Origin: Desulfonatronospira thiodismutans ASO3-1 | GTDB taxonomy: Bacteria > Desulfobacterota > Desulfovibrionia > Desulfovibrionales > Desulfonatronovibrionaceae | NCBI RefSeq assembly: GCF_000174435.1 | Contig: NZ_ACJN02000002.1 | Location: forward strand, 779,490 to 811,489 | DNA: 32,000 bases | Reading direction: 5' to 3' | Shown: positions 3,317-18,977 of the stretch, in pieces | Layout of the letters: every line of letters begins with the position of its first letter | How positions within the stretch are numbered: the stretch's first letter is position 1 | Translations under genes and position numbers: made by a program | Notes under the pieces: generated by a model | What the model was told of the DNA's origin: nothing | Seen by the model: the letters and a program-made list of their open reading frames with translations, nothing else | Database searches by the model: none

Positions 3317-3753
3317 GCTGCTCTCTCCTTTCAAAAGTTTTAGCAAAACTAGTTTGGCGTGCTTCAAAAATCAAATCTTTATCCTTAGCTTGCCTACCTG
3401 TTAGTTTTGGACTTAACACCGCGAGGGTTATTTGAACTCAATTTTTTAAGTTACTGTTCAGCCATGGGAGTTTAATTTGACAGCCCTGGAATCCTGCGGC
3501 AATAAGCATGGGGCTGTGAGACATGTGAGACAGTTGGACCTGGATTTTGTTTTCTTTAGTCTGATTTGTGTACTGGTATTAAACTTAACATGACAATCTA
3601 TCTCAACGTCTTTATTTATTGTATATAATATGGTATAATAGACTTTTTTACCAGACTTAGATTTTTCCTGCCCAACATTTTTTCTTTCCAAGATGCGACT
3701 GCAAAAAGTCTGTCTCGTAACACTTTCTCTGTGAACTGATTTTCAATATATTA

Positions 3754-3782
3754 TTGACAAATAACAAGGTTTTTGCTATGCA
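3754..3782 (+). promoter_or_regulatory. putative sigma70-type promoter for the IS transposase
   Basis: TTGACA (3754-3759), a 17-nt spacer, then TATGCA (3777-3782), lying ~30 nt upstream of the GGGAG RBS and ATG 3810. Confidence 0.35.
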
Positions 3783-3809
3783 GTCTCCTAACAACAGGGA
3801 GACATAAAC

Positions 3810-5513
3810 ATGTTACACGCAAAGAATAGAATGCAACCTTATCTGCCAATAAACGTTACTTATTTCAATGATAGAAAGTATGATTATTTACAGAAGACAA
3901 TATATCATACCTTCAGGACTGTCTTTTTGCCTTTTTTGCCTGTTAAAATTTACGGTAAGCACTTCGATAAAACAATGGGCAGAAAAACTAAAGACGTACA
4001 GTCAATGCTAGGACTCTTTATCTTGCAGGCGCTGTTTGACCTTAAAGATAGCGATGCCGTTGAAGCATATACTTTTGACCAAAAGTTTCATTATGCCTTA
4101 GATATTAAAGAGCAGGAAGCCTATTTATCAGCAAGAGCTTTTTACTACTACAAGACAATCCTGCTGGGCACGGAAGACCACATCTTCGAGCAGATCCTGG
4201 CCAAAATTTTTGACGAACTCCAATTTGACTACTCCCTGCAAAGAACCGATTCATCTCTTGTTCGCCTCAACCTCAAAAAAATGTCCCAATGGGAACTCTT
4301 CAAAAAAACTCTGATTAAAGCCCTGAACGACATCAAAGCCAAGCACCCCGTCATCTTCAAGAGTGTGCCTGAGCACATCCAGCAATACATCCAAAATGAC
4401 GAAAACAACACTTGGTTTTCAGACTTCACCCCCAGCAAGGCCAATGACTACCTCGTCCAAGCCGCCAGAGACGCCCTGGAACTAAAAGAGCTTTTCGAAA
4501 GCCATCCCAAAATCTCAAAACTGGAATCCTTTCAGCTGGTACAGCGCCTCATCAATGAACAGGTGGACGTGGATGATCAGGGCCAAATCAAAGTCGAGAT
4601 AAAAGAGGAATGCAAGGGATCCGCCATGGCCAATCCCCATGATCCCGATGCTCAGTACAATGGCCACAAAAAAGATATCGGAGTCAAGCTCAATACATCA
4701 GAAACCTGTGCACCTGACAAGGATACGCCTAATCCGCAAATTATCACCCATGCAGAGGTTACCCCCGCCAATATCTCGGACCATGAACTCCTGCAGCCAT
4801 CAATAGATGCCAGAGAGGAGAAGGGCTTTAAGCCTGATGTGGAACTGACTGACAATGGCTATGAATCCGATGCAAACCATCAGGCCCTGCAGGAAAAAGG
4901 CGTTGACCTCATCGCACCTCCCACCGGAAAGCCGCCTGAAGGCTTTGGAGTCATGGACTTTGAACTTCAGGAAAATGGACAATCCATTGATGCCTGCCCC
5001 ATGGGACAGACCTGTATTGAAAACAAAATTAATCAAAAAAAGCAAAAGACGGCTTCATACTTTGACCCCGAACAATGTCGAGCATGCCCGCATTCCGAGG
5101 ACTGTCCAATAAAAATCACCAAGCGCAAGGCAAAGGTGGAATGGCAATGGAGCAAACCTCGCTTGGAAGCCAGAAGACATGCCTTTCAAGAAGATCAGGA
5201 ACTAATCAATCTTTTCAAACAACGGGCCGGAGGTGAAGCCGGCTTTTCCCAGCTCAAGGTTAATCTTGGCCTGAGAAGATTGAGATGTCGTGGATCCGTG
5301 AAATCAAAGTTTAAAATTATCATGGCGGTCACGGCCTTAAACATCAAAAGAGCTTTCAACTGGATGAAGGGCGGCAGTAGTGGGTCCAGAGCCCGAAACA
5401 ATAAAGATTTTGAACCGGATACAGGCATACTTTTGTTTTTTTTCTGGCTTTTCTGTTCATATCTTCGCAAAATTTTGATCGTCTCGGGCCTGCGTCCGAA
5501 AATTTTTAGCTGA
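3810..5513 (+). CDS. DDE transposase, IS1182-like
   Basis: A 567-aa ORF. It contains LTDNGYESDANHQALQEKGVDLIAPP (DDE region), a Cys cluster CRACPHSEDCP, and a C-terminal GGEAGFSQLKVNLGLRRLRCRGSVKSKFKIIMAVTALNIKR. From memory, all three are typical of IS1182/IS5-type transposases. Confidence 0.75.
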   Translation: MLHAKNRMQPYLPINVTYFNDRKYDYLQKTIYHTFRTVFLPFLPVKIYGKHFDKTMGRKTKDVQSMLGLFILQALFDLKDSDAVEAYTFDQKFHYALDIKEQEAYLSARAFYYYKTILLGTEDHIFEQILAKIFDELQFDYSLQRTDSSLVRLNLKKMSQWELFKKTLIKALNDIKAKHPVIFKSVPEHIQQYIQNDENNTWFSDFTPSKANDYLVQAARDALELKELFESHPKISKLESFQLVQRLINEQVDVDDQGQIKVEIKEECKGSAMANPHDPDAQYNGHKKDIGVKLNTSETCAPDKDTPNPQIITHAEVTPANISDHELLQPSIDAREEKGFKPDVELTDNGYESDANHQALQEKGVDLIAPPTGKPPEGFGVMDFELQENGQSIDACPMGQTCIENKINQKKQKTASYFDPEQCRACPHSEDCPIKITKRKAKVEWQWSKPRLEARRHAFQEDQELINLFKQRAGGEAGFSQLKVNLGLRRLRCRGSVKSKFKIIMAVTALNIKRAFNWMKGGSSGSRARNNKDFEPDTGILLFFFWLFCSYLRKILIVSGLRPKIFS

Positions 5514-5593
5514 TCTTCGAAAAAAGTCGTAACACGAATTATTGGCCGTTAATCTTGATCTGGCAAAAAATGGACTTTTTGCAGACGCATCTT

Positions 5594-12338: not shown

Positions 12339-12365
12339 GAATTTATCAGGGCATGTGTTGTTCTG

Positions 12366-12470
12366 TTGTTCGGGTTGTTGTTCGGGTCGGACCCAGCCAA
12401 TATATTGAAAATATTCGATAAGAACTCGTTCTTTGCTTGATTTTGAGTCCTAGAACAGCCATTTTGATAT
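12366..12470 (+). repeat. interspersed ~155-bp repeat family, copy A (left ~105 bp only)
   Basis: GTTGTTCGGGTCGGACCCAGCCAATATATTGAAAATATT...CTCGTTCTTTGCTTGATTTTGAGTCCTAGAACAGCCATTTTGAT aligns with copies B-D. It begins ~30 bp after the stop of the pglZ-coupled gene, and the short unit GTTGTTCGGG is duplicated. Confidence 0.85.
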
Positions 12471-12836
12471 ATTTTCTTTCATTTGGGTGCTTTCTTGTAG
12501 GAGTACTTTTGAGGGGATGAGTTCTGGCCATGGTGGTGGTCAGGGGCTTGGTTGTGCACTTGGTGCCTTTCGGGCCTTGCGAGTACTGGACGATCCAGGG
12601 TCTGCCGGTACGGGGATAGGTTCCTGCTTGGATTGTGTCAGTTCATGGGCATGATTGACTTTTTAGTGGGGACAAGGCATGGAATAAAGAAAGCATCTTT
12701 ATCAGAGTTTTTGGTTGGAGGTGTTCCTTGAGTGGACGGCAGGCCTGGCTCACCTCGTCTCATGGCAGGGGGCTCTGGTTGAGATTTAAATATAATGTAT
12801 ATTATATTTTTTGAGTGATAGAGGGAAATTTTGTAA

Positions 12837-13073
12837 TTGAAGACAACGAAATACTTTAAGGCGACCCGAATCAGGCCGGATCGAAAAATCATCAAGGACG
12901 AATGGATTCAGTATGTTGTCCAACATCCTGAGAGAGAACAAATACAGACGGATGGCCGAATAAAGCGATGGGCCAGAATAGAGGAAATGGAAGGCCGATA
13001 CCTTCGGGTAATTTTACTCGCGGATGGTGAAACTATCCACAATGTATTTTTTGATAGAGGATTCAAACCGTGA
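12837..13073 (+). CDS. small toxin-like protein (DUF4258-type partner of DUF2283, from memory)
   Basis: A 78-aa ORF with a TTG start and a GAGGGAAA RBS. The C-terminal GRYLRVILLADGETIHNVFFDRGF pattern and the 4-nt overlap (GTGA) with the downstream DUF2283-like gene indicate a two-gene module. Confidence 0.55.
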   Translation: MKTTKYFKATRIRPDRKIIKDEWIQYVVQHPEREQIQTDGRIKRWARIEEMEGRYLRVILLADGETIHNVFFDRGFKP

Positions 13074-13267
13074 AAGTTAGCTATTTTGATGATACTGATA
13101 CACTATACATCGAGTTCCGTGATAGTGATATAGCGGAGACCAAAGATCTGGATGAAAATACCATTCTTGATGTTGATGCGGAGGGCAACGTCTGCGCAAT
13201 CACATTCGAACATGCAAGCGAACGTACTGACGTGAGTCACCTCATCGTGGAGGGCATTGCGGCATAA
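13070..13267 (+). CDS. DUF2283-family small protein (putative antitoxin partner)
   Basis: A 65-aa ORF reading MKVSYFDDTDTLYIEFRDSDIAETKDLDENTILDVDAEGNVCAITFEHAS. This matches the remembered DUF2283 pattern (YD.e.D.LYI ... lD.d..G.i.gIei). Confidence 0.65.
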   Translation: MKVSYFDDTDTLYIEFRDSDIAETKDLDENTILDVDAEGNVCAITFEHASERTDVSHLIVEGIAA

Positions 13268-13281
13268 TCAGCCCATCAAAG

Positions 13282-13434
13282 GTTTGTTCGGGTCGGACCC
13301 AGCCAGTATATTGAAAATATTTTAGAAGAGCTCGTTTTTTGATTGATTTTGAGTCTTAGAACCGCCATTTTGATGTGGAAAAAGTAGTTCTAAACTTCTA
13401 TTCTCCGAGGCGACAACTATCCTGCCACATGGGG
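13282..13434 (+). repeat. interspersed ~155-bp repeat family, copy B (full length)
   Basis: The conserved blocks are TTCGGGTCGGACCC.GCCA.TATATTGAAAATATT, GCTCGTTTTTTG.TTGATTTTGAGTCTTAGAACCGCCATTTTGAT and GTAGTTCTAAACTTCTATTCTCCGAGGCGACA.CTATCCTG.CACATGGGG. Confidence 0.9.
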
Positions 13435-13749
13435 TTTGTGGTCATCTTTCGCATCCCAGAGGAGAAGTGGCTGACCCCGCAAGATACCCCGCAAGCCACC
13501 CCGCAAGATGCCCCGCAAGTCGAACAGCTTCTCGAAATCTGTATCCAGCCATTATCCCGGCAAGAGATGCAAGATAGGTTAGGACTCAAGGACCGTGAAC
13601 ACTTTCGGAAATACTATTTAAAGCCAGCACTTGATGCGGGGTTGATTGAGCAAACAATCCCCCAAACGCCTAAGAGCAAGTTTCAAAAATACAGATTGGC
13701 CCAGGCCGGACGCAACTATCTTCAAAACATGAAAAAGGGCAAAAAATGA
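13435..13749 (+). pseudogene. C-terminal winged-helix fragment of a larger regulator/ATPase gene (RecG-like/AlbA_2- or Fic-associated type), 5'-truncated at repeat copy B
   Basis: The sequence TPQDTPQATPQDAPQVEQLLEICIQPLSRQEMQDRLGLKDREHFRKYYLKPALDAGLIEQTIPQTPKSKFQKYRLAQAG matches the remembered C-terminal tail of that family, including a 4 x 12-bp CCCCGCAAG codon repeat at 13474-13521. The first ~20 codons of track ORF 13375-13749 are encoded by the repeat itself. Confidence 0.55.
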
Positions 13750-13829
13750 TGTCTGCCCCGACGATGATATTGGCACAGAGGGCTGCAAAAAACTGGGTAT
13801 GAATAGTTCAGCAATAACCCAGATTCACA

Positions 13830-13989
13830 GTTTGTTCATTTGCTCGGGTCGGACCCTGCCAATATATTGAAAGTATTTGATAAAAGCTTGTTTTCACTTG
13901 TTTTTGAGTCTTAAAACCGACATTTTGATGTGGAAAAAGTAGTTCTAAACTTCTATTCTCCGAGGCGACATCTATCCTGACACATGGGG
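13830..13989 (+). repeat. interspersed ~155-bp repeat family, copy C (full length)
   Basis: Aligns with B and D along its whole length and ends ...GAGGCGACATCTATCCTGACACATGGGG at 13989, 40 bp upstream of the next start codon. Confidence 0.9.
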
Positions 13990-14029
13990 TTACAACGGCT
14001 TTGTAAAAATAGAAAAATAAGGAGAGAGC

Positions 14030-14926
14030 ATGAAGATTGGTAGCTTGGAGATTGATTCGAGGTATCTGATTATAGCTGGGGTGATCTTGCTTCTGGTTGT
14101 GATTTTCGGGGTGAGACAGCATGCAAACAGACAGGCGCAGGAAGTGGCCGACGGGATTATTTCTGAAGTTTCAGATTATGTGAAGGTAGAGTATAATTCT
14201 GTAAGAGGGGAGATTTTGGGCAGTGCTATTGTTCTTAACGGGGTGACTGTCGCGCCAAAAAGCGATCCGGAACAGAAGTCTGAAATTGACAGGGTGCAAA
14301 TCCAGGCCAGGGATTTCAGTGATAATGGTGTACCATATACTATGAATGCATCGATTGAGGGTCTTGCTATATACATAGACGACATGAAACCGGATGATGC
14401 CAGAACCATGCGTGATCTTGGCTATGAAGAAGTTATGCGGGGCAATCTCCAGTTCGGATACAAATACGATTTGGATGAAAGCCATCTGTCCCTGCATGAT
14501 ATAGGTATTGGTATAGATGATATGGGGAGTATATCTTTTGATCTTGATCTTGGTAATATCACTCCTGACAAACGAGATCTGATGAACCTGCTTTTTACTC
14601 ACCAGGAGATATTGGTGGGTGATTTTCGGCTGCATTATAACGATGACTCTTTTATACCCAGGATAATTCAATATGTTGCAGATGATACTGGCATGAGCGA
14701 GGATGAAGTACTTGAAATGGTTATAGCAAAAGTTGAGCAGGACATCCGGGTTGCAGATACAAATTTTGCCAGAGAGTCCCTGAAAAACTTGAAAAGCTTT
14801 CTTGAGAACCAGGATTCCCTATCCATCACGGCCAGGCCAGAAGAGCCGCGTCCTTTGGGAAGGCTTATGCAAATTCAGAACACAGACGATATTATAGAAT
14901 ATATGAACATAAGTATTGAAAATTAA
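14030..14926 (+). CDS. hypothetical membrane-anchored protein, family not recognised
   Basis: A 298-aa ORF with a strong RBS (AAGGAGAGAGC-ATG). It has a single N-terminal hydrophobic helix (YLIIAGVILLLVVIFGV) and an acidic soluble domain, and its codon usage is AT-rich relative to the flanks. Confidence 0.7.
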   Translation: MKIGSLEIDSRYLIIAGVILLLVVIFGVRQHANRQAQEVADGIISEVSDYVKVEYNSVRGEILGSAIVLNGVTVAPKSDPEQKSEIDRVQIQARDFSDNGVPYTMNASIEGLAIYIDDMKPDDARTMRDLGYEEVMRGNLQFGYKYDLDESHLSLHDIGIGIDDMGSISFDLDLGNITPDKRDLMNLLFTHQEILVGDFRLHYNDDSFIPRIIQYVADDTGMSEDEVLEMVIAKVEQDIRVADTNFARESLKNLKSFLENQDSLSITARPEEPRPLGRLMQIQNTDDIIEYMNISIEN

Positions 14927-15015
14927 ATCAGTCTTGTTCGGATAGCTGAAAGAAGCTGAGATCGCCCCGACCAAAGGGAAGGCAAAATCCGACTCACAGT
15001 GAGGTTGCTGGTAAC

Positions 15016-15170
15016 GGTTCTTTATTCGGGTCGGACCCGGCCAATATGTCGAAAATATTTGAGAAAAGCTCGTTTTTTGCTTGATTTTAAGTCTTAGAAC
15101 CGCCATTTTGATATTGAAAATGTAGTTCCAAAGTTCTATTCTCCGAGGCGACATCTATCCTGACACATGG
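15016..15170 (+). repeat. interspersed ~155-bp repeat family, copy D (full length)
   Basis: Aligns with B and C and ends ...GAGGCGACATCTATCCTGACACATGG at 15170. Confidence 0.9.
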
Positions 15171-15185
15171 AAAATAAGGTAACAG

Positions 15186-15244
15186 GTAACCATTCAAGGG
15201 GTGCCAGCAATCGCCACCGGGAATAGGCCTGAGGCGTACTCCCC
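15186..15244 (+). repeat. half copy (one arm) of the GTAACCATTCAGGGG-type MITE
   Basis: GTAACCATTCAAGGGGTGCCAGCAATCGCC...GGCCTGAGGCGTACTCCCC resembles the arms of the complete element at 26845-27020. Confidence 0.6.
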
Positions 15245-15738
15245 AGCCGTGAGCGGCAGAGCCGCCCGCCTGTCCCGTGAAACAAACGTAGTTTCAGCGT
15301 AGCTGGTTTCACTGGGATGTGCAACGAAGTTGCCCGTGCCAAAAAAATCTTCTCTGGCACGGGAAGCCTTCAGGCTTCACACCCGACTAAAATACGCTTT
15401 GCTGTCCTGCGGAATTTTAGCGGGCAGGCAGGTGCTCCGCATACACGGTTTTGAAGAATAAAGATCCCCAGAAGCATGCCCCGCCCATATCTTTAAACAC
15501 AGTCTTGAGGTATTCATTAGAGTTTCTTCAGGCCTTGTGTGCGCAGGTAGCAAATAGTTTAAAGGATATGTGCGGGGGCATTGCCCACATGGCAGACAGG
15601 CAAATTGGCATATCTCCCCCCTGAAGAGTTACAAAATAAGGAAACTCTCACATTTTAAGCCCAGTTTTTTTAGGTATCCATCAAGAGAAAGACTATTATG
15701 CAATCAAAACCTTGCCCTGATAATTTATCGAGGTTCAT

Positions 15739-18900: not shown

Positions 18901-18977
18901 GCATTCAGGGGATACCGAAATCACGCCTCTGGCGTGACTGGGGACAGTCCCCGCGACATCTATCCTGACACATGGGG
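18897..18977 (+). repeat. composite repeat: one arm of the GTAACCATTCAGGGG-type MITE fused to the last ~24 bp of the ~155-bp repeat family
   Basis: GTAAGCATTCAGGGGATACCGAAATCACGCC...GGGGACAGTCCCCGCGACA is similar to the reverse complement of 26972-27020. It is followed by TCTATCCTGACACATGGGG, which is identical to the right end of copies C and D. Confidence 0.75.

Follow-up and report, generated by a model that had tools for sequence, protein, structure and literature searches.

What kind of element are the repeats that punctuate this stretch of the Desulfonatronospira thiodismutans ASO3-1 genome, and how did they come to lie there? The window analysed here comprises 32,000 nucleotides (G000:C4:779490-811489, where G000 denotes this genome of 4.1 Mb and C its contigs) and contains four copies of a unit of ~153 bp, all of them on the plus strand and co-oriented, as established by repeat search, alignment and direct reading. 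The original prediction, which was based on the window alone, likened their layout to an integron or tandem-integration array and offered four readings: att scars, a non-autonomous mobile element, a shared promoter or leader, and small RNA genes. Of these the second proved closest, and the att-scar and small RNA readings found no support. We consider it likely that every full repeat is a non-coding chimera left over from two transposable elements, with a left part derived from a TIRtron and a right part derived from an insertion sequence (IS) of the IS3 family. Such chimeric, probably fossil transposon ends fall within known kinds of elements, namely TIRtron end repeats and IS-derived miniature elements.

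The family itself is real. Three full copies, one truncated copy and one solo right end occur in the window (Table 1), and the two palindromes GGGTCGGACCC and CAATATATTG, like the conserved right end, agree with the earlier description. A 25-nt pattern of the right end has 4 matches in the window, compared with 0.00 expected from 100 shuffles. The proposed copy-number search, performed with BLAST and nhmmer, revealed 16 strong copies genome-wide (E 1e-24 to 1e-55). Copies are found singly at many loci across three contigs, and also in other species. Ten full copies share pairwise identities of 79-93%, and six genome copies consist only of the first ~95-125 nt, followed by different tails. Both boundaries are sharp. 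In an alignment that included flanks, every copy begins ..TTGTTC/GGGTCGGACCC (a slash marks a boundary) with unrelated sequence outside, and full copies end ..CCTGACACATGGGG/ with unrelated sequence beyond. Within clusters the repeat is always single and co-oriented, without inverted doublets. That a plus-strand gene precedes each copy, as stated earlier, is true of the window and, as regards co-oriented upstream genes, of most genomic copies, where the upstream open reading frame (ORF) stops 4-175 nt ahead of the repeat. It does not extend to the other side, since downstream genes outside the window are frequently on the opposite strand.

To which element does the left part belong? The first ~108-120 nt of the repeat align, by nhmmer profile, with a superfamily of about 45 genome modules. 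Among these are the ends of elements with an ORF of 264 aa, of which intact copies lie at C4:19469-20263 and C1:22828-23622. A module of subtype "B" lies ~110 nt upstream of this ORF and again, inverted, at its 3' end. The resulting B-type elements are 927-1009 bp long with ends TTTGGGGTCGGACCTAA...TTAGGTCCGACCCCAAA; two are intact (C4:19447-20373 and C1:22806-23732) and several are frameshifted. Decayed B-type elements were observed at C4:698692-699700, 756452-757460 and 768565-769660 and at C5:1057580-1058588. The 264-aa ORF matches Pfam Y1_Tnp with 38 bits (cut-off 23), and its best NCBIfam match is the REP-associated tyrosine transposase (REP_Tyr_transpos) with 64 bits, which is below the 80-bit equivalog cut-off. 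The HUH motif is visible as NHIHLL, and the tyrosine motif YIDMNM is of the type Y---N, not the class-2 type Y---NP. A sequence search of PDB with this protein gave no match.

These features are those of TIRtrons, whose transposases (TIRYTs) are encoded at constant distance from a terminal inverted repeat (TIR) with the motif GGGGWSAS (Di Nocera et al. 2013, PMC3733652). The class corresponds to subclass 2.1 of Quentin et al. 2018 (PMC6006769) and to RAYT group 1 of Bertels et al. 2017 (PMC5581495), RAYT standing for REP-associated tyrosine transposase and REP for repetitive extragenic palindrome. The TIR GGGGTCGG fits GGGGWSAS at 7/8 positions, and gammaproteobacterial homologues (GGGTCAG) fit fully. 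The 10-mer GGGTCGGACC occurs 48 times in the genome, with ~8 occurrences expected, and about 44 of these are element termini.

Homologues with 50-70% identity were found in Desulfobacterota, Gamma- and Zetaproteobacteria, Aminicenantes and Nitrospirota. In most of 59 homologous loci from other phyla the motif precedes the ATG by ~110-120 nt, and its inverse follows the stop codon at ~30 nt. Left and right termini co-vary among these loci, for example GGGTCGCACC with GGTGCGACCC. The ends display a common architecture: the terminal inverted repeat GGGTCnGnCC, about 55 nt with a TATTGA box, and an imperfect hairpin CTTAGA..TCTAAG. Over 56 ends this subterminal hairpin is 68.5% paired, compared with 35-50% in slid controls, and its covariation score of 0.224 (controls ~0.10) was reached by 0/500 shuffles. 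A crude anchored-stem count was no better than shuffles, in contrast to the column-wise count with slid controls, and RNAalifold did not call the hairpin on the same 56 ends, with no consensus helix beyond 2 pairs.

A conserved intergenic sequence with a hairpin might also suggest a small RNA gene or a structured cis-regulatory RNA, as had been proposed. Folding of one copy, however, gave minimum free energy z-scores of +1.20 (plus strand) and +1.39 (minus strand), i.e. less structure than in shuffles, and no Rfam 15 family matched at its gathering score across the whole window. The RNAalifold result points in the same direction, and the covarying hairpin is common to both TIRtron ends in either orientation, as expected of a DNA signal. 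An RNA function is therefore extremely improbable.

The module found in the repeat is of another subtype, "A", which is also present in 15 contigs from soda-lake sediment metagenomes. At two loci (L152 and L148) a TIRYT gene fragment starting ATG..MPRANRCFLPGYVRHITHRCH follows 133 nt downstream of the A-type terminus; the fragment at L152 matches Y1_Tnp with 48 bits. The repeat tracks these loci up to ..TTCTATkCTC and then switches to the sequence described below. Judging from sequence comparison, the L152/L148 arrangement is the parental context of the left module, and the first ~120 nt of the repeat can be assigned to the left end of an A-type TIRtron, an element with a RAYT-like transposase of the Y1/HUH type.

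The right part leads to a different source. Among 41 related genomes, 20 contain the final 25-36 nt of the repeat, in many cases at more than one place and at a fixed distance from the end of a contig; in these right ends divergence begins exactly past CACATGGGG. In one genome (G030), two 99%-identical copies delimit a 1696-bp IS, which begins CCCCATGTGTCAGG.. and contains orfA (HTH_Tnp_1, 53 bits) and orfB (rve, 80 bits). Its right inverted repeat (IRR) is imperfect and shares the inner block AGTTGTCGCTTC with the left one (IRL); target duplications are 4-5 bp long (GGGGA, GCTA). A 1687-bp relative is carried by G008 and G013. Genera of the family other than that of G000 thus possess this IS3-family IS at full length. 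The tail of the repeat matches the IRL of the G008 element at about 28/30 positions (manual count on the sequences), and on its right side the repeat stops at the IS terminus CCCC. The last ~30 nt can thus be recognised as the IRL of an IS3-family IS, whose outer terminus forms the right boundary. Three solo IRLs are present in G000 besides the ten inside repeats.

Other origins of the tail were considered. The IS1182-like IS in the window was rejected as a source because its inverted repeats differ. A decayed 5' part of TIRYT coding sequence resembles the tail only loosely and by eye, and the IS3 origin is preferred because of its far closer match. The left end of the repeat bears no resemblance to the IRR of the G008 and G030 elements and no good IRR-like site was found in the G000 genome; a miniature inverted-repeat transposable element (MITE) with both inverted repeats of an IS3-like element was rejected on these grounds. 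Each end of the repeat thus matches a known IS end, a TIRtron on the left and an IS3-family IRL on the right, which is the very outcome that the original prediction had named as speaking against its reading.

These two ends also bear on the proposed integron-like or serial integration array, in which the repeats would act as attC-like sites or att scars. The window does show species-specific ~150-bp repeats placed in one orientation between small co-oriented gene modules, and in this it resembles an integron. On the other hand, both boundaries of the repeat are transposon termini, and copies are single, scattered over three contigs and present in other species as well. No IntI was found: the best match to TIGR02249 genome-wide scores 87.6 bits, with the cut-off at 265, and the island contains no match. 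The repeats lack the R''/L''-L'/R' symmetry of attC, as was correctly noted before, their single-strand fold is no better than that of shuffles, and there is no GTTRRRY core at the boundaries. This explanation can practically be dismissed.

How were the two parts joined? On the TIRtron side the junction is internal, ~15-20 nt short of the start codon of the transposase gene, and on the IS side it meets the inner side of the IRL. The termini of both elements thus lie away from the junction, and the chimera cannot be the product of one element simply inserting into the other. We suppose that the junction arose once, by illegitimate recombination or deletion, that the ~153-bp unit subsequently spread within the genus, and that its copies are now, most likely, immobile fossils. 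Two further species of the genus carry the chimera with 84-86% identity, and metagenome contigs contain it with other flanks. The parental transposase genes are absent from G000. No match to IS3 orfA or orfB was found there by tblastn at E<1e-5 (for orfB none at E<=1e-10), and the best match to the A-type TIRYT protein is the B-type gene with 72% amino acid identity. Because neither transposase was found in G000, the repeat copies are orphans of both parents.

Junctions of other kinds were seen as well. At C5:1035195-1035483 an A-type copy is joined to a B-type TIRtron that is cut past the sixth codon of its transposase; the junction reads ..ATGCCCAGAGCCAACAG/TTGTTCTGTTGTTC/GGGTCGG, so that one element end truncates another.

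The position of the module relative to its parental gene raises the question of whether the copies serve as portable outward promoters or 5' leaders, a role that is compatible with a chimeric relic. As the parental module is located directly upstream of the TIRYT start codon, it must hold the TIRYT promoter. A putative promoter, TGGAAA, 17 nt, TATTCT, ends about 30 nt before the right boundary. In copy 3 it faces right, with TGGAAA at 13931-13936, a 17-nt spacer and TATTCT at 13954-13959 (recognised by eye and by correspondence with the match found when copy 4 was scanned). In copy 4 the sigma-70-like TTGAAA-17-TATTCT was flagged at 15114-15142, and the spacing is kept in the other full copies. 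Every window copy precedes plus-strand ORFs. Moreover, the sole start codon of the truncated Fic-like_C gene, the ATG at 13429, lies in frame inside the IS3 IRL terminus of copy 2, which agrees with the earlier observation that the right end abuts a fragment of a winged-helix gene. Against this, promoter-like matches in the region number 8, with a mean of 7.2 in shuffles, several copies elsewhere precede opposite-strand ORFs, and copies with other tails lose the -10 box. A promoter function is conceivable but doubtful.

Further, we examined the surroundings of individual copies. Both termini of the repeat act as breakpoints. The window unit formed by copies 1 and 2 and the ORF pair between them (12377-13434) recurs in other contexts, at loci L141 and L149, which are distinct copies. 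L141, a metagenome contig that also shows the truncated form of copy 1, shares window positions 12379-13045 at 96% identity and has a different left flank; its left terminus interrupts a gene that is intact at C3:392.6k. In L149, positions 12615-13434 are present at 94.5% identity, and the similarity ends precisely at the tip of the IRL. Two repeat copies on C4 are only 84% alike, yet the right flank of the one at C4:440162 matches, with 98% identity, an interior portion of a 494-aa ORF, whose complete form is located 256 nt downstream of the other at C4:449581. Among TIRtrons, the B-type element at C4:698692-699700 is flanked on one side by the 5' end of a gene that G013 has intact, and on the other by the middle of a second gene, which is intact in G007.

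Repeats and TIRtrons thus mark rearrangement junctions. Gene truncation and shuffling of segments are what transposition-associated deletion and recombination between dispersed copies would be expected to leave. The position of such probable fossils at rearrangement junctions explains the cassette-array look of the window.

Two further observations were made. A stretch of 282 nt is 100% identical between genera (G013:C26:32101-32382 and C4:698391-698672); it represents the start of the gene that is intact in G013 and cut by the TIRtron in G000, and suggests very recent DNA exchange or a shared mobile region. A polymorphic segment of 1070 bp (C3:393704-394773), absent from L141, is a mosaic of four pieces: a 35-nt fragment of a TIRtron right end, a small ORF, an A-type module followed by a tail of a third kind, and a miniature element resembling IS1182. 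The inverted repeats of the latter, AAGATGCGACTGCAAAAAGTC, are the same as those of the IS at window positions 3690-5593.

Several findings weigh against a chimera that was formed once and then transposed as a unit. When the flanks of 10 repeat copies were joined and compared with 26 genomes of the family, no clean empty site came to light; in the nearest cases one flank was kept and the other replaced. Joined flanks of 5 TIRtron copies likewise gave no match spanning the junction in these genomes. No target-site duplication surrounds any of the 10 full copies. Given this lack of empty sites and duplications, we infer past transposition of the 153-bp unit rather than observe it. Nor would any known transposase be expected to use a pair of ends of which one is of the Y1 type and the other of the DDE type. 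The orientation of the 16 strong copies is uniform per contig (plus on C4, minus on C5 and C3), and this bias is only loosely connected with GC skew: leading-strand orientation fits most copies but not all, so that the check for the strand bias of single-strand transposition is suggestive and not clean. Finally, the existence of a second chimera hints at a recurrent process and not a one-off accident.

In this second chimera the A-type module extends ~8 nt further into the parent and is joined to another sharp terminus, ..GGTCAATTTTCGGTTGTCACAACCAA/ (given also as ..GGTTGTCACAACCAA and ..GAGGGTGGTCAATTTTCGGTTGTCACAACCAA/), which ends other genome sequences too. It was observed at L142, L146, L147 and L154 and, in G000, at C5:670077, C5:1024147, C4:992600 and C4:1143551.

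Another peculiarity was observed at the left terminus. The 5-12 nt outside a TIRtron terminus are often tandemly duplicated, at times together with the first 5-7 nt of the terminus, as in aatccgcgcGGGTCaatccgcgc/GGGTCAGACC. Such "stutters" accompany 11/48 GGGTCGGACC termini in the genome, compared with 169/3000 random positions (5.6%), and the duplicated unit varies from copy to copy. Besides copy 1 of the window, they were seen at C1:22780-22805, at L083, L097, L117 and L118, and at TIRtron ends in many other phyla.

Could the repeat instead be, or have been until recently, a true hybrid mobile element, with a TIRYT acting in trans, cutting at the left terminus and accepting the IS3 IRL as a surrogate right end? 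Two copies might then mobilise the DNA between them, as the 12377-13434 unit, which can be denoted R1p-TA-R2 (TA, toxin-antitoxin), would illustrate. Read inward on the bottom strand, the tip of the IRL contains TGTGTCAG 5 nt from its end, which fits GGGGWSAS at 6/8 positions and in the correct inverted orientation. Both outer boundaries act as breakpoints in independent contexts, the 1.06-kb unit has another left flank in L141 and another right flank in L149, and the left terminus shows the TIRtron-specific stutter. The genome also contains two intact B-type TIRYT genes, and a module is joined to a foreign terminus in the second chimera as well. The likeness of the IRL tip is weak, however, and could be due to chance. 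The resident TIRYT is of the other subtype, with 72% amino acid identity and the terminus TTTGGGGTCGGACCTAA in place of TTCGGGTCGGACCCAG; the copies are 79-93% alike, therefore no recent burst has occurred; neither an empty site nor an excision product was seen in the 26 family genomes; and no TIRtron has been experimentally shown to move (PMC6006769). We judge this reading unlikely. It is less probable still that Y1-type TIRYTs in general can mobilise hybrid-ended units, ranging from the minimal 153 bp to cargo-carrying R1p-TA-R2, and thereby recurrently package small toxin-antitoxin or defence modules and move them between islands; the second chimera and the terminus-specific stutters would be the traces of such mobilisation.

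If the repeat is a chimeric relic, as we prefer, how does it compare with known systems? Its parents on the TIRtron side have, as TIRtrons do, a gene for a RAYT-like Y1 transposase that lies at constant distance between GGGGWSAS-like inverted repeats, and solo and clustered end copies are dispersed in the genome. In contrast to the short TIR of TIRtrons, the dispersed unit is the whole left end of ~120 nt (TIR, spacer and hairpin) together with a foreign IS3 terminus. G000 lacks the cognate A-type transposase gene, and its resident B-type elements are multi-copy and near-identical. A left end 95-99% identical to that of the B-type was also observed in G013, G008, G041 and G017, four genomes that belong to another genus of the family. 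These two features argue for autonomous mobility of TIRtrons, for which the literature reports no formal evidence. B-type TIRtrons behave like IS and have spread horizontally in recent time.

The REP/RAYT system, including REP doublets forming hairpins (REPINs), likewise comprises non-coding repeats that stem from a Y1 transposase gene with inverted flanking copies, are thought to be mobilised by it and carry a hairpin as the likely recognition signal. The repeat studied here is longer (~120-153 nt) than the GTAG- or CGTC-tagged palindromes of 20-40 nt and has neither GTAG-tagged palindromes nor inverted doublets; its copies number tens, not hundreds; and the transposase genes are multi-copy and IS-like, whereas RAYT genes are single-copy and vertically inherited. 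Without a GTAG tag, and with single co-oriented copies of which 16 are strong, it does not belong to the REPs or REPINs. With MITEs and solo IS ends it shares a short, non-coding, multi-copy nature, sharp transposon-derived ends and intergenic or junction positions. The ends of a MITE are mutual inverted repeats; those of our repeat come from unrelated superfamilies (HUH-Y1 and DDE), the left end TTCGGGTCGGACCCAGCC does not match the reverse-complemented right end CCCCATGTGTCAGGATAG, and the 10 full copies have no target-site duplications, so that it is not a MITE either. As for the ends of IS200/IS605 elements and palindrome-associated transposable elements (PATE), a Y1 HUH relative, subterminal imperfect hairpins and the co-orientation of most copies within a contig are common to both. 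In contrast to IS200/IS605 ends, those of a TIRtron are genuine inverted copies of each other and carry the hairpin ~65 nt inward of the tip; a conserved tetranucleotide target was not found, and tandem stutters lie outside the TIRtron termini.

For the BREX-type (bacteriophage exclusion) island this result removes the readings as integron-like cassette array and as RNA genes, and the origin from transposon ends explains the truncated genes beside the repeats. The picture of TIRtrons obtained in silico is richer than that in the two papers that mention them; its by-products are an end architecture common across phyla (TIR, ~55 nt, covarying hairpin), co-varying termini and stutters outside the tips. 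A chimera of a Y1 end and a DDE end, if mobile, would bear on the choice of right ends by HUH transposases.

Table 1. Repeat copies, their parts and the ORFs next to them (positions of the window)
Feature	Position	Strand	Remarks
Stutter preceding the terminus	12356-12383	+	degenerate tandem TGTTGTTC TGTTGTTCGGG TTGTTGTTC, outside left terminus of copy 1
Copy 1 (R1p)	12377-12470	+	first ~95 nt; terminus GGGTCGGACC at 12384-12393; cut within hairpin loop; without IS3 tail
Two small coupled ORFs between copies 1 and 2	12837-13267	+	78 aa, then 65-aa DUF2283 protein (Pfam 65.8 bits)
Copy 2, part from TIRtron left end	13283-13405	+	pre-terminal TTTGTTC; terminus GGGTCGGACC at 13290-13299; TATTGA box; imperfect hairpin CTTAGAAC..GTTCTAAG; homologous to the L152 module 133 nt upstream of a TIRYT gene
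Copy 2, part from IS3-family IRL	13406-13434	-	reads CCCCATGTGGCAGGATAGTTGTCGCCTCG on minus strand; outer terminus 13434
Truncated gene, Fic-like_C winged-helix fragment	13429-13749	+	Pfam PF21247 84.5 bits
Copy 3, part from TIRtron left end	13839-13960	+	terminus 13846-13855
Copy 3, part from IS3-family IRL	13961-13989	-	CGAGGCGACATCTATCCTGACACATGGGG on plus strand
Orphan ORF between copies 3 and 4	14030-14926	+	298 aa; no Pfam family
Copy 4, part from TIRtron left end	15021-15143	+	terminus 15028-15037
Copy 4, part from IS3-family IRL	15144-15172	-	terminus degenerated to ..CACATGGAA
Solo remnant of IS3-family IRL	18953-18977	-	25 nt, GCGACATCTATCCTGACACATGGGG; without TIRtron module

The genes around the repeats, with PglZ, the DUF2283 pair, the Fic-like_C fragment and an AAA_21 ATPase, make up a decayed defence island. 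The two coupled ORFs between copies 1 and 2 are the "cargo" of the recurring unit and are probably toxin-antitoxin-like. Intact relatives of the Fic-like_C gene exist, for example on G010:C25.

Downstream of copy 4, an insert of ~460 bp (15173-15635, core 15294-15473) parts the repeat from a block of 367 bp, which directly follows the repeat at two further loci (C4:755362 and C5:1059678). The insert opens with the tandem AGGTAAC AGGTAAC and contains a 177-bp repeat that occurs at other places of the genome in either orientation and is also numerous in G005. It is probably another miniature mobile element. A different repeat of ~105 nt (G005:C373, locus L072, reverse strand 214-318) has a high copy number in both G000 and G005 and occupies more than 30 loci in G000, a genome unusually rich in short dispersed repeats.

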